Source of the DNA: Elusimicrobiota bacterium
GTDB lineage: Bacteria > Elusimicrobiota > Elusimicrobia > F11
Direction: 5' to 3'
Assembly: GCA_044221725.1 (NCBI GenBank)
Contig: JBGAON010000003.1
Coordinates: 128,001 to 192,000, forward strand
DNA: 64,000 bases
Shown: positions 13,909 to 60,354 of the stretch, piece after piece
Numbering within the stretch: position 1 is the stretch's first letter
Layout of the letters: each line of letters starts with the position of its first letter
Made by a program: the position numbers and the translations under genes
The notes under the pieces: model-generated
The model's input: only the letters and a program-made list of their open reading frames with translations
Databases searched by the model: none
What the model was told of the DNA's origin: nothing

Positions 13909-14841
13909 ATGAAGCGCAAGTACGACTACAGTGTTTCGTGGTGGTGGGCCGGAATGGTCTTCTTCCTTTTCGGCTTTTATTTTTTTGCAAGACCCACCAA
14001 AGCGGTTGTTTCTTCGCCGCTTCCCTCTCCGACCGATGTCCGTTGGAACGCCATGGTGAAAAATATCGAAGAGATGGTTCAGGGATACAATGGCGACGTC
14101 GGAATCTATATTAAGAATCTAAAGAATGGCCGGACCTACGAATACCACACGGAGCACAGCTTTGTGTGCGCAAGCCTCATTAAGTTGCCGATTATGGCAG
14201 CTACCTTTGAAGCCATTCACGAAGGCCGTATTACACTTAATACACGCATCAGATATCGACGCAACTACCGCCGGGAGGGGTCCGGCGTGCTCAAGTGGGC
14301 GCGTCCGGGAGCGTATTATCCGCTTTCCTATTTGATTTATCAGATGATCACGAAGTCCGACAACACGGCCACCGCCATGATTATTGATTTGCTTGGCTAT
14401 GACTATCTAAACGAGAAGTTCGCAAAAATGGGTTTGCAGGCGACACGCATCGCTCCCACCGGAATGAGTTTGGCGTCTCGATTGTCCAATCCAGCGCTCG
14501 ATAATTACACAACGCCGGTCGAAATGGCGTCGATTCTTGAGAAGATTTACAAGCACCAAATGGTAAGCGACGGATTAAGCGATCTAATGCTCGAAATTAT
14601 GAAAGGGGCAAATTCGCGAACTCGATTGTCCAAAAACCTGCCGCAGGATTGGCAATTTGCTCGGAAAACCGGCCTCTTGCGTAAGAATTGTCACGATGTT
14701 GGAATCGTTTTCTCGCCAGAAGGCGATTACATTCTTTGCGTGCTCACCAACGGCCGAACCGAAAACTATAAAGTCGCAAAAGGCCTGATCTCATCGGTCG
14801 GCAAGCAAGCTTACGAATACATCGATCAATCTTCGATCTAA
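13909..14841 (+). CDS. Class A beta-lactamase-like serine hydrolase (PBP-like) with N-terminal membrane anchor
   Basis: SxxK (SLIK), SDN and KTG motifs; NYTTP. Confidence 0.85.
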   Translation: MKRKYDYSVSWWWAGMVFFLFGFYFFARPTKAVVSSPLPSPTDVRWNAMVKNIEEMVQGYNGDVGIYIKNLKNGRTYEYHTEHSFVCASLIKLPIMAATFEAIHEGRITLNTRIRYRRNYRREGSGVLKWARPGAYYPLSYLIYQMITKSDNTATAMIIDLLGYDYLNEKFAKMGLQATRIAPTGMSLASRLSNPALDNYTTPVEMASILEKIYKHQMVSDGLSDLMLEIMKGANSRTRLSKNLPQDWQFARKTGLLRKNCHDVGIVFSPEGDYILCVLTNGRTENYKVAKGLISSVGKQAYEYIDQSSI

Positions 14842-17900: not shown

Positions 17901-19821
17901 TGATCAAAAGGAAAACTTTCTACAGAGTCTGAATCGCGTTCGCATTCAGGTGCCGGGACCAGCGGGGGGCGAGATCCTTTCGCCAGCGCAAATGATCGAA
18001 CGGTTTCAAAAGATCGAAAATCGAATTGTAAATGAGCGGTTCCGCCGAATGTCTCAAATTTTGAATAACGCGAATTACCGTTATGACACGCAATCTCGCG
18101 AAGCTAGCAAACGCGGTTGGAAAATTTCTCGGGGCACCTTTAAACGCATCTATTTCGCGGGGCCCGTCCGATTCATAAAGGGGGAATTGGCCGCTTTGGG
18201 TGGGCAACTCGATTCGTCTGTCCAGCGAACGAAAGGAGAATCCGCGGTCGTGACATTAATTCTTCAATTGGAAGAATACTCGAAGACAATATCCACGCAT
18301 TATTCGAATCCCAGCGCGGCGCAAATTGTTTTTGGGGCCTTGTTGTCGCGAATCGACGAAGGGCGCGACAATCTAAAAATTACCGCCTACGCGAATGCTC
18401 CGGGGGCTCTCTCTCGAAGAATGTGGATCGCCCTAAGAAAATGGGAAAGTTTTTCGAAAGGAAAAGAAAGTTCAAGGTCTAATCCCGCGGTCGCTGATCC
18501 GGATGCTGAAACGGCAGAAGAAGATGTTTTTGTGCACGATGGGGAATTCTTAAGGACTCTTGAACCGGTGACACCGGAGGTGCCAAATTCGAATAAAGAA
18601 ACAACCGTTAGCGGGAAATTCGCGAGCGAAGCAGCAAACCGTTCTGTCGGGCCCTCGTACGCGCACCTGATGCTGTCGTTGAAATCGTCACGAACGTATC
18701 GGTACGTAATCGGGGTACCGAAGGAAATTTATGCTATCGCGGGCGGGATTCTATTCATATTTGTTTCTGGCTCGAGTTCCGTGGCAATGTCACTGGCTGC
18801 GTTTCCTTCTGCAATGTTGGGGTATGTTTCTTCGACATCTGTATTTCGGGCCTTGCGAGCGTCGCGCGCTTCAAAGGGATTGATGTTGCCGACAGCTTGG
18901 CAGTTGGCGCTTAAGAAACGGATGGAAGAGCAAATGGAAATAGCGAGAGACTTGCTCGCGGTGGATGCAAACGTGGAAGTTATTTTTGAGAATGGAAATC
19001 GCGCGACGGCTCGCCTCGCTTACAAGCCCGGTGAAGATCGCCGGCCCGAATTTGTTCTCTTCGCAACCGAAGCTGGCCTGCAAAGAGTGCTTCGAGAAAG
19101 CGGAGACAATATGTACCTCCTTCGCCAAATGGCAAAAGCGGCGAGGGTCCCGTTGCCGGGCGACCTGACTCCCGTCCGTGACGCTGCGCGAATTGCCGAG
19201 ATGATCGCTGTTGGAAAAATCCTTGGCCGAAAATTTCCGAAAAAAATTCTTCAGAACTACGATGCCAACGTTTTTGAGGAATTTTTGGACAAAGGATTTG
19301 AAATAGTCGGAGGCAAATTCCTCAGCGAAGGCGCTGGCAACGTCATCAATCCATCCCGTCCGTACATAATTGATCGCGAATTATCGATTCCGGCAATCGC
19401 GGCACTTTTAAGAGGCATGGATCAAGTCCGCGGTTCCGAAGGAGTCAAATATTTGCCGGTTCTCATGAATTCTCAGGAGTTCTCGACGAAGTTGAAAAAA
19501 GCCGCCATGGACCCAAGCACTCGGGATGCTGCTCAATACGTCAGCCTACAGGGAAAAGCGAAAAAATTGGTGGTGTTGGGATTAGACTCGTTCAGCGGCA
19601 TACCCTACCTCGATCGCACCACGGTGAGTGGCGATGCGATCACCTATCTGTTGGAATCGTTTGCACGGCAAACCGGCCAAGCGGTCAATCCGGCCGTGTT
19701 ATCGGCTCGTCGTTTGACGTTGCCGGCCGATTTGGCCATTCAACTTATTTTTTCCGTCGACGTGATGGTGAAAGTGGGCGATAACCTTCGACTGGAACAA
19801 GTCGTGTTGGTGCAAGCCTAA
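14986..19821 (+). CDS. Large exported/membrane protein with N-terminal EreA/ChaN/TIKI-like domain
   Basis: 1611-aa ORF; signal peptide; QDVH...GLEG...RRNDAMA...GGFH pattern; internal hydrophobic segments. Product call is tentative. Confidence 0.7.
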   Translation: MGLRKPLVAVLALFYLVENVALATASESNLWSERRKSLQIAQLPFLPANAALPDSKTLLSTFPEMHQTLRASVAHGTPDWVQDAIAGHATVNETFLSQSPNAPTIFVVQDVHLHTEAQRNIAAVVDALTNAVAKKGTRMTVGLEGARSGPIDLTLFDVNADAELVKSIATGFLNVHAISGVEMAAISTPRQFNLTGVENIADYNTNVQALRDSAPKKKTALAALDELSRELTGLKKKSFDGELRRFDETNAAYETGKLGLPAYVMYLDSISPATTPNVRELVNAALIESSLNFKKVENERNRLIRSLVANLSERETKLLIGLTALLRSGDVSVSSYYEHLKNLSASHGLPLSQFPEMNLYIQYVLKTEAIHHTALFEEIKQLEELVRTKLARTDGERDMLVMTADQHLLLKLIESSMTESEWRAYEERKPAIEKTSARLAGLGIRVPISVKEMISGLQPFERFYTQALRRNDAMAKNILTTSPDVALLVVGGFHTNGVTSRLKTAGANVYVLTPTFTEGDDGPSSLEFLASGRLPLDEIFVGQKLFLPTAPVIVGAHAEVIAAIQKAVALAVEHLIADPIKASSVQTIDGEKVKVVRDGSGSAGFSVTYKNQKYQVLPAHGRDTKISWSSIANVTVPRLVSSLLGLGAAVFYVGMKAGLIHYPLQGVVATLLTATLVFVASQVEEEIHYRLRKVEFAQQFREKMAQLENQRNLDSKALRKALRAYAERNAPVRRLLRVDNSGPSIRVYAFGQIGFFAALSAASIAFAAFTPNFLRSIGILLPFVFLFSFGNEEALAENGWIRRGLRILRTNAKEGFGEAVAERAEPLFKLNDPMRLTRGRDGNLTFDTFTTDRAAHMAALKQNKDVEIGNLKEGLSALLHVAWLAAKDKKFARRFFDRIKWVGDNSDSFEKVIKPIFRNAIFYVDTHVGDLNSLLYQHAGTEYEDIALNVRAPVYAAFAFVNRLKDDDYVSDDQKENFLQSLNRVRIQVPGPAGGEILSPAQMIERFQKIENRIVNERFRRMSQILNNANYRYDTQSREASKRGWKISRGTFKRIYFAGPVRFIKGELAALGGQLDSSVQRTKGESAVVTLILQLEEYSKTISTHYSNPSAAQIVFGALLSRIDEGRDNLKITAYANAPGALSRRMWIALRKWESFSKGKESSRSNPAVADPDAETAEEDVFVHDGEFLRTLEPVTPEVPNSNKETTVSGKFASEAANRSVGPSYAHLMLSLKSSRTYRYVIGVPKEIYAIAGGILFIFVSGSSSVAMSLAAFPSAMLGYVSSTSVFRALRASRASKGLMLPTAWQLALKKRMEEQMEIARDLLAVDANVEVIFENGNRATARLAYKPGEDRRPEFVLFATEAGLQRVLRESGDNMYLLRQMAKAARVPLPGDLTPVRDAARIAEMIAVGKILGRKFPKKILQNYDANVFEEFLDKGFEIVGGKFLSEGAGNVINPSRPYIIDRELSIPAIAALLRGMDQVRGSEGVKYLPVLMNSQEFSTKLKKAAMDPSTRDAAQYVSLQGKAKKLVVLGLDSFSGIPYLDRTTVSGDAITYLLESFARQTGQAVNPAVLSARRLTLPADLAIQLIFSVDVMVKVGDNLRLEQVVLVQA

Positions 19822-19832
19822 AAAAGAATTAC

Positions 19833-21461
19833 CTAAAACGCCTGGCCAGTTCCAAACGTCACCACGAACTTCGCGTCATCGGGGTTGATGCGTTGCGGCC
19901 GATAGGACAAATCCAAGCGAATGATAACTTCGTTCGAAGAGTGGGTTAGCCCAAAACGCAATCCGGCGCCAATATCGCTTTTCAGTTTCGAGAGCGCTAT
20001 CGGTTCGTTTTCAGCCCACACATAACCTGTGTCATAAAATACCGCAGCGCCAAGCGAAACCAAGTTCCAGAGTTCGTCGATTAAAAACATTCGATCTTCA
20101 AGATTGAGGACCCAGCCTTTGTTCCCAATAATGCTGTCCACAGGAAACGCTCGCAATCCGTTGTCTCCGCCGAGTTTCACTTCGTTGTCCGGGTCCAGTT
20201 TGTCGCCCCAATCGGCGCGCGTGTTAATCACCATGGTGTGAAAGTCGCTGGCCCGGTTGTAGTGTTTAAGCTGAATGCCATAGCGCTGATTTTCGCCGTT
20301 TTCGAATGGATTTCGCCCCGAATAGGAGTAGCGCTGAAAAAGCATTTTCTGCTTCGACATCGTGCGTTTCTCAAACGAAGCTTCCGCTTCTGGTTTGTTG
20401 CCGGAACCGGTGAGAGCGTGAGGGGAAAAACCGGGGGACAGCGCGAGAATAGGACCGAGATTGATGTCTTCGACGCGCGTCATTTTTTCGAGATGAGTTG
20501 CTTCGATGAAGGCGCTGCGTTGCCCCATATAGTCGAGGAAAATCGTCTGAAGGTTTTCGCCTCCCGGAACATCCCGGCCCGGTGCCGTCTGACTGTTTCG
20601 TTCGTAATCGGTGACGATACGTTTGTAGCGCAAGCCCAAGCGGTTAACCACATCGCGCCCGCCGCCCAGTTTTATGCCGCCGAAAACCTCGTTCGTCTGT
20701 TTTGTTTGTTGAAAACGGGATACGAGCACATTGTTTTCGTGTTCGCTCAGGACTTGCTGTTGCCAATCATTCGTGGCCCGCGCGGACCATTTTGTGTCGG
20801 TGGCGTAAAACGGACGTTCGAGTTTTAATAGCCGCTCCTCGCCCTCGGTTTTATTCGTGAGAGACGCGTTTAGTTGCCACCGAGATCCGAGCAACCGAGG
20901 ATCAAAATAGGTGTATTGGCGTTGGGTAAAGTTATCGCCTCTCTTGTAAAAAATCCCGATGGTTTTACCGTATCCCAACAAATTCTTTTCTTTGAAACCA
21001 AATTCGGTGCTGTTAATTTTGTTTTGCCCACCGAGATTGATTTGCGGTTCGGTTGTCCATGCATCGTTCACATGCACGACGAGAGCAACCGAACCGTCGC
21101 GCTGAGGAAACTTGGCTACGCGTGCCGCTCGAATAAAAGAAAGCGCGCGAAGATTCCTCTCGGTTTCGCTGAGCAAGAAAGGATCCAAGCGGTCGCCCAC
21201 TTTAAATAAAAGTTCTTGGCGAATAACTTCTTCCTTGGTCTTTATGTGCAGGAAGTTGATGGTGTTATAAGGAAACCGGTTCAACGACACGTTTGTGTCC
21301 ATGTCGAAGATATCGGTGCCCCGAATGGTAATCCGCGAAATAACCGGAGAGGATTTGGACGTTGCTGCGGCAGCCCTTATTGCAAACGTACTTCCGATAA
21401 GAATCGCTACGAAGAACGACCGAAAAAGCGCCGAGGATGATGCGAAGGTATTTCCGAGCAA
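19833..21461 (-). CDS. Omp85 (BamA/TamA family) protein
   Basis: Signal peptide; POTRA-like TKEEVIRQELL...ETERNLRAL; EKNLLGYG; LGGDNGLRAF lid-lock motif; FYDTG; C-terminal GQAF. Confidence 0.85.
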   Translation of the reverse strand: MLGNTFASSSALFRSFFVAILIGSTFAIRAAAATSKSSPVISRITIRGTDIFDMDTNVSLNRFPYNTINFLHIKTKEEVIRQELLFKVGDRLDPFLLSETERNLRALSFIRAARVAKFPQRDGSVALVVHVNDAWTTEPQINLGGQNKINSTEFGFKEKNLLGYGKTIGIFYKRGDNFTQRQYTYFDPRLLGSRWQLNASLTNKTEGEERLLKLERPFYATDTKWSARATNDWQQQVLSEHENNVLVSRFQQTKQTNEVFGGIKLGGGRDVVNRLGLRYKRIVTDYERNSQTAPGRDVPGGENLQTIFLDYMGQRSAFIEATHLEKMTRVEDINLGPILALSPGFSPHALTGSGNKPEAEASFEKRTMSKQKMLFQRYSYSGRNPFENGENQRYGIQLKHYNRASDFHTMVINTRADWGDKLDPDNEVKLGGDNGLRAFPVDSIIGNKGWVLNLEDRMFLIDELWNLVSLGAAVFYDTGYVWAENEPIALSKLKSDIGAGLRFGLTHSSNEVIIRLDLSYRPQRINPDDAKFVVTFGTGQAF

Positions 21462-21474
21462 GGGGGGCTTGGTT

Positions 21475-21852
21475 TTATCGTGCGACCACTACGGTTCCTG
21501 TCGCTTGGTGGGTGCCGAGGACAAATGAATAAATGTAAATCCCTGATGGCGCCACACGTCCGCCGTCGTCCTTCCCATCCCACAGCATGGCCGTTTCCGT
21601 CGAGTCGAGCGTTGTGTGGGCAACTTTGGCTCCATTGAGGTCGAAAATGTTGCCCTCGAGCGGGAGGCCAGAGATGGTGTCATCGAATTTGAAGTATACA
21701 ACGTCGTTCAAAAGGTCTCCGTTCGGTGTAATGACGCGAGGGGCAACCTCAATTAACGAGATGCCGCCCAACGATTGGGAAGACGCGCCTGCAAACGCGA
21801 GCCACGGAAGCGTCAGTGCTGCCAGTGTGGCCAAAATAACTCGACTTTTCAT
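21475..21852 (-). CDS. Stand-alone T9SS-type C-terminal sorting / FlgD-Ig domain protein
   Basis: Signal peptide followed directly by ITPNGDLLND...IFDLNGAKV...WDGKDDGG...SGIYIY...GTVVVAR. Confidence 0.8.
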   Translation of the reverse strand: MKSRVILATLAALTLPWLAFAGASSQSLGGISLIEVAPRVITPNGDLLNDVVYFKFDDTISGLPLEGNIFDLNGAKVAHTTLDSTETAMLWDGKDDGGRVAPSGIYIYSFVLGTHQATGTVVVAR

Positions 21853-21890
21853 AACGTTTTCGTACCGAGCATATCTTTATTCGGTTTCCA

Positions 21891-23468
21891 TTATTTTAAA
21901 AGTTTCATTTCGTCTTCCGCGGACGATACGTCGATACCGCTGCCTTTGTATTTCTGAATGATACGTTCGAGCATGCCACGACGCTCGTCCGTGCTCGCTC
22001 CTTGTTGAACGAGTCGACGATAGAAATTCATCGATAGATCAAAGTCCTTCTTCGCTTTGTTCTCGTCGCCCTTCAAGCTCTTTAATTCCCGTTGAACGGT
22101 CGACAAATCAACACCTTTGCCGGCAAATTCGGTCATAATTTTTTCGAGCGTGTGACGTTTCTCCTCGAGCGATATCCCTTGTGTTACTTTTTCGTTGTAA
22201 TCGGCGAGAGCCGCTGTGTAGCTGTTGAAGACAGTACGTTTTTGTGTCGTTGCCGTTTGAACGGCCGCGCGTTCTTTTTGCGCGCGCGCTTCTTGGTCTT
22301 GAGCTTCCTTGAGTGCGAGTTCCGACGCTTTGCGCTCGGCTTCCTGTTCGGCTTGCGTTTTTGCTTCGGTTAACGCATAGAGCTGTTTCTTGAGCCGATC
22401 GGCTTCCGCTTTCGCGTAGCGAGCTTCGGTTTCGGCGCGGATGCGGTCCTCTTTCTCTTTGATCAGTTGTTTTTCAATCGGATCGACCGGCGGCTTGCCG
22501 AGACGAACCGTCAACGAAACTTGCTGGATTCCAAGCGTACCGGAAATACCTTCGAGCGGGAGAACCGTTGCGTAGTCGAGTTGGATGGATTCCATCTTGT
22601 ATGACGCACCGAACGAAATTGATGAATAACTGCGGGAAGCTGAAGCCGCTCCTGCGCGCAATCCAAAACCGTTTTTGAACCATTTTTCTCCGCCAAGCGC
22701 GAAACGTAGATTGTTGTCGACGGATGTCCAGTTCGTCACTTCGACGCCAATGCAGCCCGAACGCCAACGGCGCGCAATCGACCCGGTGTAGATAGCCGGC
22801 ACCTTGTCTTTGCCACCCCCCAGCCCGACGTCCGGACTGTTTATGTTGCGCGCGGTCAGCCCGAGAGCATACGCTTGATTAAGCCGATATTGAAAACCAA
22901 GGTCAAGTGCAACGGCCGATGCCGAGCGGCTTTTGGCGAGCAACGGGTCCGCGGTGCCAGTTGCATTTCCAGTGATGGGGTTGATTGCGTTCGAAGAATA
23001 TTCGTCCGAGCCGATTGATTTTTTTAGAAGTTTTACCGAACCACCAAAATTCCATTTGTGACGGAAGTCGCGTCCGTAGGTGATTCCAATCGATTCCTCT
23101 TTGTAGAGCCCCGGCAATTCCATGGATAGATAACTGGCGCCAATGCCGCCGTGTTTTCCAAGCTCGCCCAGCGGTTGGCCATAGCCAAGGAAAATGCGGC
23201 TGATTTGCGAATGATCGGAGAGACCCGGATACAGCTGCGAATAGTAGCTGCCGATCTCCGGACGGTTCAGTTGAAGAATTCCGGCCGGGTTGTAGTAAAC
23301 AGAGTAGACATCGTCCACGATAGCGGAATAGGCTTCTCCCATTCCTGCGGCGCGGCCACCGACAGGAAGAGGCTCAAAAGACGCGTAAGAAATGGCAGAA
23401 AACCACAGGGATAGAAACGCAGGAAGAAGAAGGGTGTACGAGAACTTGAATTCCGCTGTGAACTTCAT
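21891..23468 (-). CDS. PorV/PorP-like beta-barrel with coiled-coil stalk and two 53-aa C-terminal repeats
   Basis: Signal peptide; GGRAAGMGEAY...YYNPAG; barrel ending DYA...QQVSLTVRLG; E/K/A-rich coiled coil; duplicated helical domain. Confidence 0.75.
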   Translation of the reverse strand: MKFTAEFKFSYTLLLPAFLSLWFSAISYASFEPLPVGGRAAGMGEAYSAIVDDVYSVYYNPAGILQLNRPEIGSYYSQLYPGLSDHSQISRIFLGYGQPLGELGKHGGIGASYLSMELPGLYKEESIGITYGRDFRHKWNFGGSVKLLKKSIGSDEYSSNAINPITGNATGTADPLLAKSRSASAVALDLGFQYRLNQAYALGLTARNINSPDVGLGGGKDKVPAIYTGSIARRWRSGCIGVEVTNWTSVDNNLRFALGGEKWFKNGFGLRAGAASASRSYSSISFGASYKMESIQLDYATVLPLEGISGTLGIQQVSLTVRLGKPPVDPIEKQLIKEKEDRIRAETEARYAKAEADRLKKQLYALTEAKTQAEQEAERKASELALKEAQDQEARAQKERAAVQTATTQKRTVFNSYTAALADYNEKVTQGISLEEKRHTLEKIMTEFAGKGVDLSTVQRELKSLKGDENKAKKDFDLSMNFYRRLVQQGASTDERRGMLERIIQKYKGSGIDVSSAEDEMKLLK

Positions 23469-23474
23469 GTTCTA

Positions 23475-23502
23475 AGTGTAAAGTCACAGGGGTATTATTC
23501 AA
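23475..23502 (-). promoter_or_regulatory. Sigma70-type promoter giving a probable leaderless mRNA
   Basis: TTGAAT-N16-TACACT-N6-ATG on the minus strand. Confidence 0.6.
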
Positions 23503-23628
23503 GGCTGCCATCAATTTTTCACAAAATAATCGAGTTGATTTTTAGAGGGAAAGATTACGAGCGGCAACTTTCTGTCGGGGGAATCCGTAGTGCGATTAAG
23601 TTTTCAGCTTTAGGAAATCCGTGCACGA

Positions 23629-24564
23629 TTAATTTGTGCTCGAAGAACCCAATTTGTAACCGATGGAGATCCGGTGGGAGAGTCCAAGATCACCGAAAGG
23701 TGAGACCGAATAGTCTAAATTAAACCGGTTGAGTTGCATGCCCAAACCAGCGTTAAGGCCCGCCAGTCCGCCCAGATCCGCGCTCTGCCCGGGAGTTGCT
23801 TCGTAACCGCCGCGAACCGCGAACGCGGGGGTGAGGTGATACTCTGCACCGAGGTGCAGGGAGACGTTTGCGTCGTTCGGTTTGGAGGCTTCGAGCGCCA
23901 CGAGGAGCCGTTCGTTTAGCACATGTGTCGACGCTCCAAGCCGAACCGTGGCGGGCAGCGGTGAAGAGTCCTTCACGAGCTTCATGCTAGGTCCCAGATG
24001 TTGAACAACACCGCTAAAATTCATGTTGTTTCTTTTGTAGAGAATGCCAAGGTCCGCGGCGAAAGTGGACGCTTTTTCGCTCTCAATCGATTCCGAAACA
24101 TATTTCAAATTCGCGCCCACCAACAAGTTGTCCTGAATTTTCTTGGCTGCTGAGATGCTTCCAGCGAGCGATCCGGCATTGAACGATCCGTCTTTTGTGT
24201 CGCTCGCGGTATACCGGTCGATCGTTCCATAATCAAGACGGTAAACGGATGCGCCCAACACAAAACCTGCCATCGGTGATACGGCGCCGATATATTGAAA
24301 ATTTGTGTTATCAAAATGGCTGTTCTGCATGGCGCCAATTTCGGTGGATTCAAGTTGAGCCAATCCGGCCGGATTCCAGTACGTTGCCGTCACATCGTCA
24401 GCGACGGAAGAAAACGCGTTTGCCATGCCGGTTGCGCGGGCGCCGACGCTGAGTTTCAAAAACTGGGCCGCGGAAGTACCCGTCGCGAAAGTGTTTGATG
24501 CGGCCATCATCATAATCGCTGCTATCACCGCTGCCACTGAGCTGTTCGTATTCGTCCTCTTCAT
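23629..24564 (-). CDS. PorV/PorQ family outer-membrane beta-barrel
   Basis: Signal peptide; AQFLKLSVGARATGMANAF...YWNPAGL; DYSVSPFGDLGLSHRISIGYK. Confidence 0.85.
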   Translation of the reverse strand: MKRTNTNSSVAAVIAAIMMMAASNTFATGTSAAQFLKLSVGARATGMANAFSSVADDVTATYWNPAGLAQLESTEIGAMQNSHFDNTNFQYIGAVSPMAGFVLGASVYRLDYGTIDRYTASDTKDGSFNAGSLAGSISAAKKIQDNLLVGANLKYVSESIESEKASTFAADLGILYKRNNMNFSGVVQHLGPSMKLVKDSSPLPATVRLGASTHVLNERLLVALEASKPNDANVSLHLGAEYHLTPAFAVRGGYEATPGQSADLGGLAGLNAGLGMQLNRFNLDYSVSPFGDLGLSHRISIGYKLGSSSTN

Positions 24565-24760
24565 GCTCAAAGCCTAAAAGAGAACCATGACAGATCAGTG
24601 ACCCCAAAAAGATAGATACGAGAAACTTGCGGCACGTAAAAGAGGAATTATGCGAGGAGACCGGAGAGCAACAGGAAGCCAATGTGAGCTTTAAGTTTAA
24701 GCAATCGAGGCGTCATTACGAGGCAATTGCTGGATTGTAAAAGGTCACATCAGGATTTTC

Positions 24761-26236
24761 TTAGCGGAGAACGGCGATTTTGCCTTGTTTTTTGTGACCG
24801 GCGGAATCGGTGATCAGAAAATAATAAACACCGGACGCTACTTGCTTTCCATCGTCGTTTACGGCCATCCATTTCAAGGTCGTTGAGCCAACAGCCGCTT
24901 CTTTATTAAAAACTGGTTCGCCGGCCACTGTAAAAATTTGCACTTTTGCGCCGGGCGTCAGATTCGTGAAGGTGACGTCGCTATGGCCCAAATTTGAGTT
25001 TGGCTTGAACGGATTCGGATAGGCGTGCGCGTCGTCCAGTGTAGAAGGGGTTATTCCACTGCTGGTCGGACCCGAACCTGACGCGCTGGAAAATACCGTG
25101 GAGACGCGCAATTGGACGTCCTGTGCTGCGATGGCTTGCGCCGTTTGGCTTGTGTTTTGGGGTATTAGCACCTGAAAATTTTCTTGGGCGCTGTCGAAGT
25201 TGCCGTCCACCGGAGTTGCGATAGCCCATGTTCCGTCTTTTAGTCGATACTCCACCTTCGCAATCGTATCGACGGAGAAACCATATCCTTGGGAGTTCGA
25301 CTGGCGTGGCAGAATCGACACGGCTGCTTGGCCCGTAAAAGCGGTGCTTCCCGACGTTGCGGACTGGGACGGTTGTGGCGTGAGTGTGACCCTTGGAGAT
25401 TGATCGAGAATATCATCACGACCGTTTTTGTCGCTATCGCGCCACCCGATCGCGAGCTTGGCCCAATCGTCGAGCCCCCAACGAATACCACCGCGCATGA
25501 TAGAGTCTGGGGCGTTCGCCTTTGAAGAGTAAGCATGGTTGCCGTTTATCGTCGGAAAATAGCCGTCGGTATAATCGTTCGGGCCGCTGGCTCCGGCGTA
25601 TTCGTCGAGCGCGTGGAAGATATGTCCCATTTCGTGCGCCGCTACCACGTTCATGTTGCTGATGCCATATCCGTCGTTGTCGTATGTCATTACAGCAAAT
25701 GGTCCGCCGAGATAAGCATACGCAAACAACCCGTCCGCAAACATTCCATTGGAATCCTTTAGACTATCGACGACAAATATGACGTAGCCCCAATCTGTCT
25801 TGTACTGTTTACGAAGGTCGTTTACATAAGCGCGTGTCGCGGAAAACCGTGTTCCGCTGTAACCCACCTTGCTCATGATGTCGGGGATCCAAAGCGACTC
25901 GTCGTAATAAGGTCGATTTATAGGCTCGTATTTTGTGGCGACCGTTCGTGAAACAACCGTAAAGCTGACAGGCGACCTGGGATTTTGCTTTGTCCACCAA
26001 TCGAGACCCGACATAATTTGGCTGAGCACCTGCGCTTTGCGATCGTCGCTCCAGTCTTCGGTGTTCGCGTCCTGGGTTCCATCCGATTCCGGGAAAATCA
26101 CAGAGACCACGACGCTTCCCATTAAAAAATCGCTTGTGTAATTCGATTGGTCGAGGCCGACGCTGCTCAGTTTCGCATGCACCGGTTGCATCATCGTGAG
26201 CGCCAGCGCCGCTGCAATGACTGTTTTCTGTTTCAT
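24761..26236 (-). CDS. Secreted metzincin-like Zn protease with T9SS type A-like C-terminal domain
   Basis: Signal peptide; HEMGHIFHALDEY zinc motif; SIM Met-turn; CTD AYPNPFKP...IFTVAGE...SGVYYFLI...GKIAVLR. Confidence 0.82.
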   Translation of the reverse strand: MKQKTVIAAALALTMMQPVHAKLSSVGLDQSNYTSDFLMGSVVVSVIFPESDGTQDANTEDWSDDRKAQVLSQIMSGLDWWTKQNPRSPVSFTVVSRTVATKYEPINRPYYDESLWIPDIMSKVGYSGTRFSATRAYVNDLRKQYKTDWGYVIFVVDSLKDSNGMFADGLFAYAYLGGPFAVMTYDNDGYGISNMNVVAAHEMGHIFHALDEYAGASGPNDYTDGYFPTINGNHAYSSKANAPDSIMRGGIRWGLDDWAKLAIGWRDSDKNGRDDILDQSPRVTLTPQPSQSATSGSTAFTGQAAVSILPRQSNSQGYGFSVDTIAKVEYRLKDGTWAIATPVDGNFDSAQENFQVLIPQNTSQTAQAIAAQDVQLRVSTVFSSASGSGPTSSGITPSTLDDAHAYPNPFKPNSNLGHSDVTFTNLTPGAKVQIFTVAGEPVFNKEAAVGSTTLKWMAVNDDGKQVASGVYYFLITDSAGHKKQGKIAVLR

Positions 26237-27282
26237 CGCGGCGCCTCAGGATTTACGAAAACATCTGTTTTGGAATTTTCGGGAGCGTTCACATTGATTG
26301 TGCGGATTTCTGACCAATCGCTTTTTTGATCGCCCCAAAATTGAGCTCGCCAATACAATTTGTCGCCGACTCTTAAATCCGGGGAAGGACACACGAATTC
26401 GCCCGTTGCCGAGATAGCGTCCACTATCGTCCGACCAAAGTCGGAACTTCTCGCAACTTGAATGCGCACGGGCGTGCTGGCGTTGGCTTGCCATTCGAGA
26501 ATTAAGTTGAATCCGCGCGATTCAAAATTGGACAAGGGTGAGGTTAAGAGCGGGGCGGGAGACGTCGTTTCCGAAATGCTCGCGGGTACGCTTACAGTCG
26601 CTGTCCGAGAGAACGCGCCATAGACATTTTCTCGGCTCCCCGTTTCCGTTGTCACCACATCCACCGCTCGTACGCGCACAAAAACTGTCGAAGGATTCGC
26701 CTGAATTGGCGCCGGAAGATCTGCGGTTGGCTGGCTCGTCTGATCGAAAGAGATTCGATTGCTAAAAGTTTCATCCGAGGCGCTTTCGACTTCATAGAAA
26801 AGCGCGCCACTGAGGCCGGTCCACGAGACGTGCAGCGTGTGACCGTTCCGTTCGCAAAGAACTCCTTGCGGAGAAGGCAGCGACTGTCGCGCCACCAATG
26901 AACGAATCGCTCCGGCCGTTGCTTGGGACCCCACCCTTTTTGAATCTGCGAGCAGCTGCCTGTTCCATTGCGTTCCGGCGGCCACCGCTAGAGGGCCAAG
27001 CGGTTGAAGCGTATCGAGAGAAACGGCGCTGGTTGTAAAGAATTTAACGGATGCCATCGTTTTGGGGTTGACCGAATCCGGAAAATTCGCAATGAGAATT
27101 TGAGGCGGGACTTGGTGGTGAATCCGAACACCTTTTTGTGCGAGGTGCGCGGCCTCGTCAACGATATCTGTGCCGTCATTTAGGATTAGAAAAAAAGGCG
27201 TCTCGGCTCGCAGGTTCGCAACGGAGGTAACAGTTAGAAAAACGAATATCCAAGAAAGGTTATTCAGCAGGAGTTTTCGCAT
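26233..27282 (-). CDS. Secreted protein with two fibronectin-III-like domains
   Basis: Signal-like N terminus from the ATG at 27282; SWTG...FYEVE...FVRVRA and LEWQ...QVARSSDF...YWRAQ...SDWS patterns; ATGA-coupled to the protease. Confidence 0.7.
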   Translation of the reverse strand: MRKLLLNNLSWIFVFLTVTSVANLRAETPFFLILNDGTDIVDEAAHLAQKGVRIHHQVPPQILIANFPDSVNPKTMASVKFFTTSAVSLDTLQPLGPLAVAAGTQWNRQLLADSKRVGSQATAGAIRSLVARQSLPSPQGVLCERNGHTLHVSWTGLSGALFYEVESASDETFSNRISFDQTSQPTADLPAPIQANPSTVFVRVRAVDVVTTETGSRENVYGAFSRTATVSVPASISETTSPAPLLTSPLSNFESRGFNLILEWQANASTPVRIQVARSSDFGRTIVDAISATGEFVCPSPDLRVGDKLYWRAQFWGDQKSDWSEIRTINVNAPENSKTDVFVNPEAPR

Positions 27283-27421
27283 CACCTGTTCATATACGCG
27301 AATCGAAAAAGATTCAATGACTTTTCTGCGCTTTTTCATCGTCTCTTAAGCGTAAGCCTCGACTGTGTTAAAGCCGTGACAAGCTGTGGAAAACTGTGCG
27401 AATTTCTTATGATCCTCCAGC

Positions 27422-54562: not shown

Positions 54563-55501
54563 ATGAGAAAAACGAGTCTAATTTTGGCGGTGTTTATGGT
54601 TTTTCCGGCTATCAGCGAAACACACGCTTGGAGCTGGGATTCTCCCGAAAATGTGATGCCCACATTGCGAGACGATCTCGACCGAGAAATTGCGGCGTAC
54701 CGTCAGCAGGTTTTAAACGGAATGGCTGTGCACGACCGGATCATCGCGCTCGACCGGCTAATTGACAACTACAAACCAATGGGAATAAATGTCGCCGAGC
54801 TTGAAACCGAACGGTCCCGCCTTGTGCTTGAAGAAAAACAGCAACAGTTGCGCACCTCTCAAGCTCAGGATCAAGCGACCATTCTTTTTGAACGCGGTGT
54901 TTCCGAGTACAAAGAAGGTCAATACGAAACCGCGCGTCAAACATTCCTCGAAGCCGAACGTCTTCTCCCTCAAGATTCTGCGATTAAGGAAACGCGTCGA
55001 CGATTGTCGAATGTGACGCCAATTCTCGAAGTCGAAGTCGGAGCCGGAAAAGATTCCCAGCTCATCCGTCTCGCGGTGACTCGTTATCTTGAAAACGATC
55101 CAAAGAGAGCGCTGAACGCATTGATTTACGCAAACGATAAAAAAATAGCGCGACCTGAAATTCCACGTCTTCGTCGTCTCATTGAAACCGATCATCCCGA
55201 AATCGAACCGCCGGCACTTCCAGCCGGTTTGTCGCTCGTGGATCACAAGTTGCAACTCACGCTCGAGGCGATTTACGACGGACGCTACCTGTCGGCCATC
55301 ACCGAGTGCACCGATGTTCTCGATTTGGAACCGACCAACGTAATGGCGCTTACGCGACTGGGGTCCGCTTATTTTGCCATGAACGAGCGCGAGAAAGCCA
55401 AGCAGATTTGGACGAAAGCGCTGCAATATGATCCGAACAACGAAGTTCTGAGAAAATTCTTGTATGGCTCAAAAGGATCTTCCCGTGTTGAAACGCGTTA
55501 A
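54563..55501 (+). CDS. Secreted TPR protein with N-terminal ~50-aa helical domain
   Basis: Signal peptide ending THA; TPR repeats (LFERGVSEYKEGQY...; ALTRLGSAYFAM...WTKALQYDP). Confidence 0.82.
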   Translation: MRKTSLILAVFMVFPAISETHAWSWDSPENVMPTLRDDLDREIAAYRQQVLNGMAVHDRIIALDRLIDNYKPMGINVAELETERSRLVLEEKQQQLRTSQAQDQATILFERGVSEYKEGQYETARQTFLEAERLLPQDSAIKETRRRLSNVTPILEVEVGAGKDSQLIRLAVTRYLENDPKRALNALIYANDKKIARPEIPRLRRLIETDHPEIEPPALPAGLSLVDHKLQLTLEAIYDGRYLSAITECTDVLDLEPTNVMALTRLGSAYFAMNEREKAKQIWTKALQYDPNNEVLRKFLYGSKGSSRVETR

Positions 55502-57194
55502 CCAATATCTTCTGTTCATCGTTTTTTCCGCTGTCGTTCTGCTTGGCGGTTTTGCGAACGCCGAACTTTCGCTCGATAGCGAACGCCTGGATCTTGAAAT
55601 GAGAATGCAAAAGCGCGTGGAAGAAGCGCTTGGAAAAATTTTGCCGGAGGGGCAGTTCGTTGTCGTTATTCGCGTGGAGCCACTCGCCATTAAAGAATCC
55701 ACAAGCAAGAACGAGAAAGACGACAACGGTTTTTATCTGCCCGGTGTGCCCGTGAAAAAAAGTTTCGACTCGACCGGTGAGCAAATGCAAAACCTCGTCG
55801 ACACGCTAAAACCTGAATCAAAAATTTTCCAGCGTTTCATCAAACGCATCCAAGTCACCCTCGTTCTCGATCAGGCGACGGCGGATGATGTTGTGTCGAA
55901 GGTGCGCGAGCTCACGCGTCAAATGCTCAGTCTTGATTCCGAACGGGGCGATACGCTTGATATTCAGAAAACTGCGTTTTCGAAACCCACCGAGGTTCAA
56001 CTTTCGCCAACCGGAATTCTTAAATTGCAGAAAGACTTAAAAAATTACTGGCTGCTCATTCTCCTTGTGCTTGTTATTTTCTGCATCATCGTTTTTTTCT
56101 TGTTCATGTTTGGGCCGCTTCGCGGTTTCTTGAACAACTTCGTGCAAATCTTACCGACGCTCAAATCACAGGAAGCGGCGCGCGTCCGCATGGAGATGCC
56201 ATTTATTCCACCGTACATGAATCCGTACGGTTTGCCGGGACCGAACGGTCCCACCGTGGCCGCAGGAAATGCGGCGTTCTCAGGTTCGTTGCAAGTTGAG
56301 AATCCCAACAAAACCATCCTGCCGTTCGGATTTATTCGGGAAGATCATCTCGGAAATTTGGCAATTTTGTTGGCGCGTGAAGTGCCCGAAAAAGCGGCTG
56401 TCGTGCTCGGCTATTTGCCCCCCGATTGGATCAGCCGTGTACTGGCGCGTTTGGATCAGACAATGCAGTCGGATATTGCTGCTCATCTCGCTACAACCCG
56501 GCAGCTTCTCCCGGAACAAGTGGAAGACATCGAGCAGGATTTAAAACGCCGGCTCGATTATCTCGTGGGCGGGCCGGACCGCATCTTCGCGATTTATGAA
56601 TCACTCGAGCCTGAGGGGCAGAAGCGAATGCTCGATAGTCTTAAGGAATCACGCCCCGAAATTGTCGAAGAGCTTCGGCAACGAACGCTTTTGTTTGAGG
56701 ATCTTGAGCGCTTGGATTCGCCCGCGCTCAAATCTGTTTTGCGTGAAGTGGATTTGCAAACGATTGTGACCAGCTTGAAAGGCGTTACGGAGTCCTTCAA
56801 GACCCGCATCTTGGAACACATGTCCGAGGGCAAGGCAGAGATCGTAAGGCAAGAGCTTGACCTGAGCGACGCCAACGCCGTCGGAAAAGCCACGATGGAA
56901 GCGCAGCGTAAAGTGGTGCTTTTGGCCAAACGCCTTGAGCGCGAGGGACACATCCATATCCCGCACGTGACCGAGGGCGCCCCGCCAACGCGGTTCGGCC
57001 CATCGTTGCGTTCGACGCTCAAGTTGCCACCGGGGCTCAAGATTGACGATACCCTTCCGGTCGAACCGATTTCTTCGGAAACTCCGGCTCCGAAGGACAA
57101 CATCCAAGACCGTATTCGCAAATTTATTAGCCGACGCAACGACGATCGGGCCGAAAGATACCCGACCGACAAGCCGCCAAAAGATAGGAGATAA
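55464..57194 (+). CDS. FliF-FliG fusion protein (ring-building domain, TM helix, FliG middle and C domains)
   Basis: FliF-like LEMRMQKRVEEALGKIL and IKRIQVTLVLD...LDSERGDTLDI; TM helix; FliG-like EVPEKAAVVLGYLP, FEDL..LD, HMSEGKA, EAQRKVV...LEREGHI; start may be the GTG at 55485. Confidence 0.8.
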   Translation: MAQKDLPVLKRVNQYLLFIVFSAVVLLGGFANAELSLDSERLDLEMRMQKRVEEALGKILPEGQFVVVIRVEPLAIKESTSKNEKDDNGFYLPGVPVKKSFDSTGEQMQNLVDTLKPESKIFQRFIKRIQVTLVLDQATADDVVSKVRELTRQMLSLDSERGDTLDIQKTAFSKPTEVQLSPTGILKLQKDLKNYWLLILLVLVIFCIIVFFLFMFGPLRGFLNNFVQILPTLKSQEAARVRMEMPFIPPYMNPYGLPGPNGPTVAAGNAAFSGSLQVENPNKTILPFGFIREDHLGNLAILLAREVPEKAAVVLGYLPPDWISRVLARLDQTMQSDIAAHLATTRQLLPEQVEDIEQDLKRRLDYLVGGPDRIFAIYESLEPEGQKRMLDSLKESRPEIVEELRQRTLLFEDLERLDSPALKSVLREVDLQTIVTSLKGVTESFKTRILEHMSEGKAEIVRQELDLSDANAVGKATMEAQRKVVLLAKRLEREGHIHIPHVTEGAPPTRFGPSLRSTLKLPPGLKIDDTLPVEPISSETPAPKDNIQDRIRKFISRRNDDRAERYPTDKPPKDRR

Positions 57195-57196
57195 CC

Positions 57197-57982
57197 ATGG
57201 ATTTGATGACGCTTCTCGGATGGGTCGTGGGTCTTGGAGCCATTGGATGGGTCCTTCAAGAAGGTGGCACCATTCACTTTTTTGTGAACGTTCGTGCGAT
57301 TGTGTTGGTGTTCGGCGGAACTTTTGGCGCAACGCTGATCACCTATCCGTGGGGAATTTTGAAGCGCATGCCGTCGTCACTTCTTTATTTCATATTCCCT
57401 GGACGTCGCGAGTCGGCGGACAGTTTGATGTCGCGCTTGTTGGCGTTGTCGAATCGCGCGCGTCGGACCGGCATGGAGAGCCTTGATCTCGACATGCGCG
57501 GCACACGCGATCATTTTCTCGCGAATGGTTTAAAAATGATTGCCGACGGATTGCCGCCAAACGTGGTTCGTTCGAATCTCGAGAAGGAAATTTATTTCAT
57601 TCGCTTGCGGCACGCCGAAATTTCAAACGTCTTTAGAAATATGGCCACGTACGCGCCCATTTTTGGTTTGCTGGGAACCTTGGTGGGCGTGGTCGAAGTC
57701 ATGCTAAATCTAACGGATCCGCGCACGATGGGCATGCACATGGCTGTCGCGATGACCGCCACGTTCTACGGAATTTTCGGCGCAAACTTTTTGTTTCTGC
57801 CGGTCGCTGGGAAGCTGCAATCTTATTCGGAGCAAGAAATCTTTCTTAAAGAAGTAACGATCGAAGGAATCTTGTCCATTCAGCGCCAAGAAGTTCCGGC
57901 CATCTTAACCCGTCGCCTGGAGTCCTATCTGAATCGGCGCAGCCGTACACGTATCGCCGATGAACGGAGAGACGCCGCTTGA
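57197..57982 (+). CDS. motA: MotA/PomA-family stator A subunit
   Basis: MDLMTLLG, VFGGTFGA, ARRTG..SLD, FL..GL.MIADG, APIFGLLGTLVG, ATFYG, LPVAGKL, EGILSIQ. Confidence 0.9.
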   Translation: MDLMTLLGWVVGLGAIGWVLQEGGTIHFFVNVRAIVLVFGGTFGATLITYPWGILKRMPSSLLYFIFPGRRESADSLMSRLLALSNRARRTGMESLDLDMRGTRDHFLANGLKMIADGLPPNVVRSNLEKEIYFIRLRHAEISNVFRNMATYAPIFGLLGTLVGVVEVMLNLTDPRTMGMHMAVAMTATFYGIFGANFLFLPVAGKLQSYSEQEIFLKEVTIEGILSIQRQEVPAILTRRLESYLNRRSRTRIADERRDAA

Positions 57983-58635
57983 TTCATCGATTGATTCGTT
58001 TCAAAAACGATTCCCGACTCGAAACTATTTGGCTTACGATTTACGCGGATCTCATCACGAACATGATGCTGGTTTTCCTTGCGTTGTACGGATTAACTGT
58101 AATGGGAGATGACGCGCTCACACGTGCGGTTCAGTCGATGAGCTTGAACGATATTTACTCAATGAAGGAAACCAATCTTGATTTTTCTGATATCGCGCCG
58201 GCCTTGCGGCAGAAATTCAAGCAGCAAGCCGATATAAAGATTACCGAGGAAGTGGGTGTGGTGCACATTGAATTTGGGGAACAAATTCTTTTTGATTCCG
58301 GTCGGGCTGTGCCAAAAGGAAGCGCGATCGAGCCGGTCAGAGTGGTTGCCGATCTGATTAAACCGTTGCCGCACACCATTGTCGTTGAAGGACACACGGA
58401 CTCCAGTCCGTTGCAGCACGGAAATGGTTATCGCGACAATTACGAGCTCTCATTGGCGCGCTCAATGTCCATCGTTAATCTCCTGATCGCCGACGGTATT
58501 CCCGCGGATCAAATTGCCGCGGCTGCGTATGGCGAATATCGTCCGCGGGCTTCCAATAGCACGGCGTTGGGGCGTGGCGTCAATCGTCGGGTGGAGATCG
58601 CACTCTTTAAGGATTTCGGTTATGTCCATCGATGA
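57979..58635 (+). CDS. motB: MotB-family stator B subunit 1
   Basis: WLTIYADLIT TM helix with the conserved Asp; OmpA-like LFDSG, VEGHTD, NYELSLAR, NRRVEI. Confidence 0.85.
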   Translation: MIHRLIRFKNDSRLETIWLTIYADLITNMMLVFLALYGLTVMGDDALTRAVQSMSLNDIYSMKETNLDFSDIAPALRQKFKQQADIKITEEVGVVHIEFGEQILFDSGRAVPKGSAIEPVRVVADLIKPLPHTIVVEGHTDSSPLQHGNGYRDNYELSLARSMSIVNLLIADGIPADQIAAAAYGEYRPRASNSTALGRGVNRRVEIALFKDFGYVHR

Positions 58636-59338
58636 GAACGAAGAGGGATTAGGGGCGTCCGAGCCGCTTCCTCTGTTTGAGGAAGACGACGCAGACGCGC
58701 ATGCGTCCGAAGCCGGTGAGGACGTTGACTCAGAATACATTCTGCGACGGCAACAGCCCGAGCGTCGAGCTCCGCGCCAACTTTGGCTCATTTCCTATTC
58801 GGACTTTATGACAATCCTTATGATTTTCTTTCTCGCAATGTACGGTTATACGTATCTTGCCAAGGCCGCTCTGTTAAAGAATGAAAAGAAAATTTCGAAT
58901 TACTCGCAGTTCACGACGCAGATACAAGAATTGCAGAAATCGCTCGGCAGTCAGCTACGAGTTCAAAACGACGTGGACAAAATCGTGATACAGCTCAGCG
59001 ACAAAATTCTTTTTGCCAGCGGCAGCGCCTCCGTCGAACCGGCCGCCGGGCCCACACTTGAAGAATTGGCCAATTCAATTAAGCTGGTGGACGGTGACGT
59101 CATCGTTCAAGGCCACACCGACAATGTTCCGATTCGTGGCGGTCGTTACAGGTCGAATTGGGAATTGTCAACGGCCCGAGCGTTTTCAGTAATCAAAAGA
59201 TTAACCGAGGCGGGCGTGCCCGCGCAGCGTCTGGCCGCGTGGGGACTTGGAGAGAACAGGCCGATCACGGACAATTTAACGCCCGAGCATCGCGCCGAGA
59301 ACAGACGCATTGAAGTCGTGATTTTGAAGAAGAAGTAA
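58622..59338 (+). CDS. motB: MotB-family stator B subunit 2
   Basis: Acidic N-terminal tail; WLISYSDFMTILMIFF TM helix with Asp; LFASGSA, QGHTDN, NWELSTARA, NRRIEV. Confidence 0.87.
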   Translation: MSIDENEEGLGASEPLPLFEEDDADAHASEAGEDVDSEYILRRQQPERRAPRQLWLISYSDFMTILMIFFLAMYGYTYLAKAALLKNEKKISNYSQFTTQIQELQKSLGSQLRVQNDVDKIVIQLSDKILFASGSASVEPAAGPTLEELANSIKLVDGDVIVQGHTDNVPIRGGRYRSNWELSTARAFSVIKRLTEAGVPAQRLAAWGLGENRPITDNLTPEHRAENRRIEVVILKKK

Positions 59339-59349
59339 AAAGGGGAATT

Positions 59350-60354
59350 ATGGCCGGTGAGCGCATCCTTATAATAGATGACGATGAGCAAGTCGCTTCC
59401 TATTGTCGTTTGGCGTTCACGCTGGCCGGATACCAGGTGGAGTGGATTAAAGACGGGCGCCAGGCGGTGCAGAAAGTGCGTGAAATGATTCCCGACGCCG
59501 TCATTCTCGATTTGAAGTTGCCCGGCATAAACGGTTTCCGAATTTGCGAACAACTTCGCTTGGAGCCTCAGACGCGCGCGATCCCTATTATCGTCGTGAG
59601 CGGCAGCTGGAAAGATTCGCAGGATCGCATTCGTTCGATCGAGGTCGGCGCCGATGATTTTCTCACAAAGCCGTTTGACGCCGAAGAACTGATTGCGCGG
59701 ATCAAACGCATGTTGCAGCGAAAGAAAGTTGATATGGGGCACAACCCGCTCACGGGTCTTCCCGGAAATCTTGCCATCGAAGAAGAGGCGCGGCGCCGGC
59801 TTGCACGGAAAGATCCGCTCGCGTTCGCGTATATCGACCTCGACAATTTCAAAGCCTACAACGATGTGTATGGCGTAAAACAAGGCGACAAAGTTATTCG
59901 ATTGCTAGCCGACTTGTTGGTCCAAGCCACGAAGCGGTGGGGAAATCAGGACGATTTCATTGGCCATGTTGGCGGAGACGATTTTATCGGAATGACAACG
60001 CCGGACAAAGCGCAAGCCGTGTTCGAATGGATTGCCAAGCGCTTCGACGAACGGATTGCCGCCTATTATTCGGAAGCCGATTTAAAAGCGGGTTGTATCA
60101 CGGCCAAAGACCGTCAAGGAAACGTGAAGAAATTCCGATTCGTTTCTGCTTCGATCGTTTATTTGACCGACAAAAACATTGAGACGAATCAATACCCGTT
60201 ATTGATTCAGGCGCTCACCGAAATGAAAGGATTTGTTAAACACACCATGGAACGCAAAGGCGGAAGCGTCGTGTTTCGGGATCGGCGTAGCACCGAAGAG
60301 CCGCCATCCAAAACGATTTCTGCCCCGATTCCAAAAACAAAACCCGCCGCTTAG
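59350..60354 (+). CDS. Response regulator with diguanylate cyclase domain (REC-GGDEF)
   Basis: ILIIDDD, ILD phosphoacceptor, KPF; PLTGLPGN, DLDNFKAYND.YG...GD, GHVGGDDF. Confidence 0.9.
   Translation: MAGERILIIDDDEQVASYCRLAFTLAGYQVEWIKDGRQAVQKVREMIPDAVILDLKLPGINGFRICEQLRLEPQTRAIPIIVVSGSWKDSQDRIRSIEVGADDFLTKPFDAEELIARIKRMLQRKKVDMGHNPLTGLPGNLAIEEEARRRLARKDPLAFAYIDLDNFKAYNDVYGVKQGDKVIRLLADLLVQATKRWGNQDDFIGHVGGDDFIGMTTPDKAQAVFEWIAKRFDERIAAYYSEADLKAGCITAKDRQGNVKKFRFVSASIVYLTDKNIETNQYPLLIQALTEMKGFVKHTMERKGGSVVFRDRRSTEEPPSKTISAPIPKTKPAA

Follow-up and report, generated by a model that had tools for sequence, protein, structure and literature searches.

Rings of the FliF type and the rotor protein FliG have so far been treated as specific to the flagellum, and the stators of the flagellar class as a single clade bound to motility (PMC12505986). 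A ring module of the flagellar type is reused outside the flagellum in the injectisome and in SpoIIIAG, and engineered FliF-FliG fusions of Vibrio, which are laboratory constructs serving as flagellar parts, can form a ring (PMC11481574; 10.1101/2023.02.06.527414). Alternative uses of rotor proteins have been raised in general terms (10.1101/2024.12.05.626484), and homologues of motAB and fliG have been reported from non-flagellated free-living Elusimicrobiota, where their role is unclear (Uzun et al., 10.1101/2022.07.08.499144). Here we analyse a stretch of 64,000 nucleotides from an Elusimicrobiota bacterium (GenBank assembly GCA_044221725.1, contig JBGAON010000003.1, positions 128,001 to 192,000 of the forward strand), in the following called the window. 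It contains an operon of six genes (54563-60354) coding for a rotor protein in which parts of FliF and FliG are fused, for a flagellar-type stator and for a secreted tetratricopeptide repeat (TPR) protein. These genes point to a motor of the cell envelope that has not been described before and whose probable targets are outer-membrane proteins and not a propeller.

With the flagellar motor core the locus shares the RBM3 fold, the middle and C domains of FliG, a flagellar-type MotA and MotB proteins with the Asp and an OmpA-like domain; it differs in its natural fusion, its two specialised MotBs and its dedicated TPR adaptor. Unlike the engineered Vibrio proteins, the fusion is natural, truncated and situated outside a flagellum. 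Where the injectisome retained export at the cost of the motor, the system described here did the opposite. The Glt gliding machinery of Myxococcus has TPR and outer-membrane partners. The AglRQS motor of Myxococcus likewise has a single A subunit and two B subunits, but AglR belongs to the Tol/Exb-like class (PMC12505986) and has no FliG/FliF ring, whereas the MotBs of the window have OmpA-like anchors. As in the gliding and type IX secretion system (T9SS) motor in Bacteroidota, genes for a 5:2-type motor are tied to PorV-like barrels and to surface proteins with a C-terminal domain (CTD). Unlike GldLM, to which it is unrelated in sequence (PMC9389320), the motor would consist of MotAB on a FliG ring, and its output would be the TPR domain instead of the GldM shaft. 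From the generic 5:2 motors of the Ton, Tol and Agl systems it is set apart by the OmpA domain in both B subunits and by the lack of an ExbB/TolQ match. MotA, MotB1 and MotB2 of the window show the A and B subunit features of the FIT-class flagellar stator (PMC12505986). Elusimicrobiota are not mentioned in the available parts of PMC12505986 and PMC13277936, and a full-text literature search, with most subscription journals outside its scope, returned no description of the fusion, the operon, the motor-specific TPR domain or the link to a barrel.

The operon and its rotor fusion

The six genes lie on the plus strand and are separated by gaps of -38, +2, -4, -14 and +11 bases; coordinates and Pfam domains bear out the original prediction, which had proposed six overlapping or abutting genes. 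The first gene (54563-55501) codes for the secreted TPR adaptor, consisting of a signal-peptide-like N-terminus, a helical motif of about 55 amino acids and a motor-specific TPR domain (Pfam TPR), for which we use the name TPRX. It is followed by the rotor fusion of 576 amino acids (55464-57194; Pfam FliG_M and FliG_C), by MotA, the flagellar-type stator A subunit (57197-57982; Pfam MotA_ExbB), and by two MotB proteins (Pfam MotB_plug and OmpA). MotB1 (57979-58635) has a membrane helix with an Asp and an OmpA-like peptidoglycan-binding domain, and MotB2 (58622-59338) has an acidic N-terminal extension, a membrane helix that here also carries an Asp, and an OmpA-like domain. The last gene (59350-60354; Pfam Response_reg and GGDEF) codes for a REC-GGDEF response regulator with the motif GGDDF and is probably cotranscribed with the motor genes. 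Promoter and terminator scans stayed at or below chance (3 versus 4.5 and 6 versus 10.9, respectively). In four metatranscriptome runs from one study, contigs were scattered across the operon at a depth of about 1-5, not above that of the flanking genes; DNA may be present in such data, and the contigs can't demonstrate transcription.

The rotor fusion begins with what looks from its sequence like a cleavable signal peptide. This is followed by an RBM3 domain with a short insert, one membrane helix (about residues 195-216 by hydropathy), a linker of 54-77 amino acids, the middle and C domains of FliG and a low-confidence tail. The Pfam match to YscJ_FliF_C is weak (E 0.004). An AlphaFold2 model based on a 48-row alignment (mean pLDDT 75, pTM 0.40) supports both folds: residues 30-173 match the RBM3 of FliF (Z 14.5, root mean square deviation (rmsd) 2.3, 101 aligned), and the middle and C domains of FliG are matched by residues 295-501 (Z 16.9, although the rmsd between domains is large). 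For the FliG C domain alone the match is Z 14.6 and rmsd 1.5 with 89 aligned, and SpoIIIAG is a further fold match (Z 8.3, rmsd 2.6, 80 aligned). RBM1 and RBM2 of FliF and the N domain of FliG are absent. The predicted FliF-FliG fusion therefore stands as regards both folds, but FliF is represented only by RBM3 and its second membrane helix, and FliG by its middle and C domains.

Independence from the flagellum

The assembly comprises 2.82 Mb in five contigs and is 93.9% complete. The Pfam families FHIPEP (FlhA), Flagellin_N, CheW and MCPsignal had no match in the whole assembly, while control genomes were matched. As a second query set we used 34 proteins encoded in the flagellar cluster of G242, a family member that is flagellated (33 of the proteins were named by Pfam). 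With tblastn, 32 of the 34 had no match in the window's genome, among them the export gate proteins FlhA, FlhB, FliP, FliQ and FliR, the rod, hook and filament proteins FlgC, FlgE, FlgF, FlgG, FlgK, FlgL, FliC and FliD, and the switch proteins FliM and FliN of the C-ring, of which distant homologues could be missed. FliI and FliA matched only at 29% and 25% identity, probably hitting ATPase and sigma factor paralogues. Since the FliG of G242 itself missed the FliG domains of this genome, the tblastn test excludes only orthologues. The absence of flagellar and che genes, originally noted for the 64 kb, thus holds for the whole assembly, where neither Pfam nor tblastn revealed a flagellar gene set elsewhere.

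FlhA was found in 6 of 251 Elusimicrobiota genomes. In three of these (G242, G064 and G121) the fused system is present as well, next to a separate set of FliG and MotA encoded within the flagellar cluster of each genome. Because flagellated relatives keep a FliG and a MotA of their own, the fused system is not the flagellar motor. Conversely, 79 of the 82 genomes that have both the fusion and TPRX lack an FlhA match. The independence of the operon from the flagellum is well supported, and the genome-wide absence of flagellar genes together with the folds supports the view that a flagellum-derived rotor-stator set is used without a flagellum. The same data bear on the explanation that the operon was left over when a flagellum was lost, or that it drives a flagellum encoded in the unassembled 6% of the genome. 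The incomplete assembly and the flagellated member of the same family would allow for this, and motor remnants have been discussed (10.1101/2024.12.05.626484). Yet the system is intact in some 82 genomes, mostly without FlhA and often in two to four paralogues per genome, flagellated genomes keep both systems, and the partners TPRX and barrel are missing from the four flagellar loci. The intact copies and the coexistence with flagellar gene sets largely refute this explanation, and we consider it hardly tenable. Two different motor operons stand in tandem at the loci L111 and L112.

Distribution and the TPR adaptor

Matches to the rotor fusion were present in 88 of the 251 genomes, with most families represented; two large families with small genomes are almost without the motor (1/70 and 1/84 genomes with a fusion match). 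Fusion and TPRX occurred together in 82 genomes and were both lacking in 162; one genome had TPRX only and six had a FliG match only, three of the latter being flagellated with one weak match each. The TPRX profile was built from motor loci, so that positives are partly circular and negatives are not. In the window's genome, TPRX scored high only twice, at the two motor loci that this genome contains.

For the gene neighbourhood, 92 loci were fetched (two duplicates dropped), picked from the best matches and not comprising all of them. TPRX was situated at most 4.5 kb from the rotor gene in 81 of the 92 loci, and in 38 of 43 among the loci outside profile building. It was fused to a barrel in 47 loci; 70 loci had MotA at a distance of up to 6.5 kb, and 43 had a CTD protein at up to 5 kb. 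With near-perfect co-occurrence, the TPR domain belongs to the motor, and profiling of the operon across the 251 genomes identifies a conserved system of the Elusimicrobiota, of which the window holds the minimal form.

Against PDB sequences the TPRX profile retrieved generic TPRs only. Prediction of a complex between RBM3 and TPRX gave a score of 0.36, compared with 0.01 for the best control; the prediction runs share at least 55% of the contacts, and the partner pLDDT is at least 85. Of 157 solved pairs 116 attained the mark set for this score, as did 2 of 215 mismatched ones, and the mark-reaching pairs at 0.60 or below comprised only 18 solved pairs and both mismatches, so that a complex of RBM3 with TPRX is weakly supported by the model. 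Together with the co-occurrence in 82 genomes this strengthens the earlier proposal that the TPR protein is the periplasmic output of the motor.

The stator

All ten PDB sequence matches of the window's MotA are MotA or PomA (best E 7e-46), and ExbB and TolQ were not among them at E 0.001. Residue columns are numbered here after the E. coli proteins. The MotA motif is ARRTGMESLD, in which Arg occupies the column of R90 and Asp that of E98, and each MotB has an Asp at the D32 column; alignment thus confirms the rotor-facing Arg and the two ion-binding Asp residues named in the original prediction. The equivalents of P173 and P222 are likewise kept. Of 70 MotA sequences compared, 67 have Arg or Lys at the R90 column, and both prolines are present in 70/70. 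In the flagellar motor R90 pairs with D289 of FliG and E98 with R281, the latter pair being the one likely related to torque (PMC6680979). In the fusions the D289 column is Glu in 62 of 91 and the K264 column is basic in 72 of 91, and the His of the FliM-binding EHPQ motif occurs in 0/91.

The two MotBs are not equivalent. Among 44 operons with two MotB genes, the first MotB has the Asp in 42, whereas in the second this position is Asp 26 times, Asn 13 times and Thr 5 times, so that 18 of the 44 are without Asp. In a quick tree 43 of the 44 first MotBs fell on one unstarred branch (support 87); the trees of this study have only SH-like approximate likelihood-ratio (SH-aLRT) support and reveal clustering, not the direction of transfer. 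As a MotB lacking the Asp is hard to reconcile with a working homodimer, MotB1 and MotB2 likely form a heterodimer in the stator. For AglQ and AglS, heterodimer formation is stated to be unknown (PMC9389320). The natural pairs of a B1 with Asp and a B2 with Asn or Thr bear on the question whether a 5:2 motor runs on one ion site.

The probable partner barrel and CTD surface proteins

A second, paralogous motor is located on contig C3 (G000:C3 about 233800-267724; L001:52-17724). This locus contains a CTD protein of 8,005 amino acids, a fusion of barrel and TPRX, a rotor fusion with a TPR tail, FlbD, MotA and one MotB, as well as a pair of cytoplasmic proteins with coiled coils, of which one starts with a Pro-rich segment. 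Only one of the many barrels of the genome carries TPRX.

In the window itself, the probable partner of the motor is an outer-membrane barrel of FadL/PorV fold with a long helical C-terminal tail (21891-23468, minus strand), identified by reciprocal best match, fold and motif. Directly after it comes a secreted protein of 125 amino acids that consists solely of a T9SS-type CTD (21475-21852, minus strand; Pfam CHU_C, E 9e-7). In G064 a barrel gene lies directly upstream of the TPR gene in the orthologous motor operon; its best match is the barrel of the window (46%, E 1e-85), which in turn finds the barrel of G064 when used as the query. In family f17 the motor operon is preceded by a full-length homologue of the window's barrel together with a small gene for a CTD alone. 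The model of the barrel has 14 strands and the long helical tail, and its best folds are FadL and T9SS-translocon chains, chain F of which we take to be PorV. With PorV_fam it scores 71 bits, under the cut-off of 90. The end of its tail matches the motif at the N-terminus of the TPR protein (35% over 52 amino acids, pairwise E 2e-7). Because of the reciprocal match, the gene order in f17 and the shared helical motif, the operon of the window appears to have been split, and the barrel might dock to the TPR protein. With this probable partner and a second motor elsewhere in the genome, the term stand-alone, which had been applied to the operon, no longer fits.

The genome has at least 12 UPF0164 and 18 FlgD_ig matches, and an open frame of 13,703 amino acids ending in a CTD-type domain (G000:C3:407277-448388). 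Shuttle and cargo of the T9SS type are represented by the barrel of the second locus, which scores 114 bits with PorV_fam, above the cut-off of 90, by the FadL/PorV fold of the window's barrel and by the FlgD_ig proteins. SprA_N was found in 0/1 for the window's genome, and no control genome was matched either.

The UPF0164 and FlgD_ig matches are an argument for the explanation that the motor energises a T9SS-like export step. It would pull a dedicated PorV-like shuttle and release particular large cargo from an outer-membrane translocon, as GldLM/PorLM do, and would have no later role in moving surface proteins. The two cargo frames of 8,005 and 13,703 amino acids would suit such a function; in Bacteroidota energy is required at the step that sets the substrate-carrier complex free (PMC10994853), and a shuttle may be dedicated to a certain cargo (PMC12618676). 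Moreover, families without the motor mostly have few CTD matches per genome. Against it stands that FlgD_ig proteins occur in 211 of the 251 genomes, including 63/70 and 51/84 of the two families nearly devoid of motors, and that some motor-less genomes hold 10-21 FlgD_ig matches. As CTD proteins occur with or without it, the motor is not the general export engine, and a general requirement of the motor for CTD export is ruled out. The single barrel with TPRX among many, and loci without barrel or cargo outside the phylum (see below), also speak against export as the task, which we regard as rather unlikely.

The probable partner barrel is part of a secretion-like cluster of five to six genes (19833-27339, minus strand), which comprises a 368-amino-acid protein, a CTD protein with a weak M6 metalloprotease match, two PorV-like barrels and the 125-amino-acid CTD-only protein. 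An Omp85-family barrel in the same cluster (19833-21461) could be a translocon candidate in a genome that gave no SprA match. A further PorV-like barrel of the window, with a C-terminal LysM domain, is found at 3375-4700 (minus strand).

Related loci outside the phylum

Searching with a profile recovered a large family, one member of which is annotated as coming from bacterium BMS3Abin07 and has homologues labelled Nitrospirota or Nitrospiraceae. Metagenome loci that are 44-48% identical to this member contain the fusion, MotA, MotB, a second MotB with Thr, and TPRX, and in a quick tree the Nitrospirota-like rows are nested among those of Elusimicrobiota. At five Nitrospirota-like loci (L136, L140, L141, L143 and L144) the core is situated within a cluster of multiheme cytochrome, NHL-repeat and RCC1-repeat genes. 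Since the Nitrospirota-like loci share them with the window, the invariant core can be given as five genes: rotor fusion, MotA, MotB1, MotB2 and TPRX. This core is small enough for expression and imaging.

The cytochrome neighbourhood raises the possibility of an envelope-maintenance or Ton/Tol-like motor which acts on varied periplasmic targets, such as peptidoglycan via LysM or the cytochrome conduits of Nitrospirota, with barrels as one client among others. TPRX carries a LysM domain in G064. In addition, 15 loci (L097:14120-16060 and 14 others) are adjoined by a secreted family of 640 amino acids with a C-terminal Phe and no Pfam match, which stands mostly beside operons with free TPRX, often together with FecR and carboxypeptidase-regulatory-domain genes. 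Perhaps it is a second barrel type; it matched no named family, and a local profile found no homologue in the window's genome. However, MotA is of the flagellar and not of the ExbB/TolQ type, Ton and Tol motors need no FliG ring, and gut-type families live without the system, so that we think a general envelope motor quite improbable.

Proposed mechanism

Sequence, fold and genomics give good support to the parts list, to the conservation of the five-gene core and to a system that is independent of the flagellum; ring formation, rotation and the downstream job are what we infer from them. The fusion would polymerise via RBM3 into an MS-like ring, the cytoplasmic FliG domains forming the rotor rim. 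Five MotA subunits around MotB1 and MotB2, anchored to the peptidoglycan by their OmpA domains, would turn with the ion flow and drive the rim, presumably in one direction, because FliM and FliN, the FliM-binding His and the che genes are missing. As there is neither a rod nor an export gate, the force would leave through the periplasmic face of the ring and pass to the TPRX adaptor. These three steps taken together we consider fairly likely. In the fourth step TPRX, fused to or docked on a PorV-like barrel that holds a CTD-bearing surface protein, would let the motor move or handle this pair. The TPRX encoded by the operon of the window carries no barrel, and the one that it likely works with is encoded at 21.9-23.5 kb. 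For the complete chain, that is a non-flagellar, ion-driven trans-envelope motor derived from the flagellar rotor-stator core, the chances appear even.

Several points weigh against such a motor. The torque-related residues are altered: the E98 column is Glu in only 20 of 70 MotA sequences, and the R281 column of FliG is Gly in 71 and Arg or Lys in 6 of the 91 fusions. Three of four flagellar MotAs of Elusimicrobiota also have Gln at the E98 column. Judged by the conserved columns, the stator seems still able to dock, whereas switching seems to be gone and the interface for torque changed, which is the main evidence against ordinary rotation. The operon of the window itself has no barrel or cargo gene, and in the four Nitrospirota-like loci seen in full there was no barrel or CTD match, so that the barrel is not universal. 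A TPR domain of about 230 amino acids would have to span the peptidoglycan without a rod or P-ring. Finally, the genomes are kin, and their counts are not independent events.

In its most specific form our proposal is a separate rotary machine in which an asymmetric MotA5-B1-B2 stator, with a single proton site in many lineages, drives a rod-less ring that grips the TPR adaptor and spins or tows T9SS-type surface proteins via the barrel. It would serve surface motility or the movement of adhesins in free-living Elusimicrobiota, including non-flagellated magnetotactic members, and its core would be reused beside the cytochromes of Nitrospirota. With all these details the proposal is tentative, and some of it may well be wrong. 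It offers a candidate for the motAB and fliG genes and for the non-flagellar movement of magnetotactic Elusimicrobiota (10.1101/2022.07.08.499144).

Signalling neighbours

The REC-GGDEF gene adjoins the motor in seven distinct loci of close relatives, the window being one of them (74-84% identical); the remaining fetched loci lack it at this place. Homologues are present in 84 of 121 genomes, motor-less families included. The motifs GGDDF and DLDNFKAYND are kept in the close relatives, as would be expected of a diguanylate cyclase. Adjacency and distribution rule out the regulator as a core part of the motor, as which it had been listed; it is an add-on at the family level. Searches with Rfam were negative for riboswitches in the window, at three related loci and at the second motor locus of the genome. 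Tandem c-di-GMP-I riboswitches precede five of seven coiled-coil-type loci tested (L063, L064, L069, L075 and L099), lying upstream of the small CTD gene, the barrel-TPRX gene and the rotor fusion. Control of the motor system by cyclic di-GMP (c-di-GMP) is plausible. Kinase-like genes, named by sequence motifs, or REC-GGDEF often adjoin the operon, and the neighbours vary by lineage.

The neighbours would also suit a mechanosensor or signalling device: the stators would engage the FliG ring and do little work, and load or contact at the barrel-TPRX link would alter this engagement, to be read out by the neighbouring kinase or diguanylate cyclase. The loss of R281 and the frequent lack of the Asp in MotB2 would agree with this, as would the riboswitches. 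Nevertheless, the signalling genes are not the same in all lineages and many loci have none, there is strong conservation of R90, of the prolines of MotA and of the MotB1 Asp, and riboswitches are an input to the operon and not an output. Sensing as the principal function is in our opinion unlikely, and we prefer the motor acting on surface proteins. At the loci L049-L052 a barrel, a kinase-like gene and a small CTD-only gene stand before the motor, an arrangement that recalls the PorA-PorXY signalling pair of Porphyromonas.

Other genes of the window

A protein of 1,611 amino acids (14986-19821, plus strand) has a signal-like start and internal hydrophobic segments and resembles the frame L002:8504-11188. 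Upstream of it, a protein with a Beta-lactamase2 match is encoded at 13909-14841 (plus strand), and a stand-alone OmpA-domain protein with similarity to MotB at 12400-13074 (plus strand).

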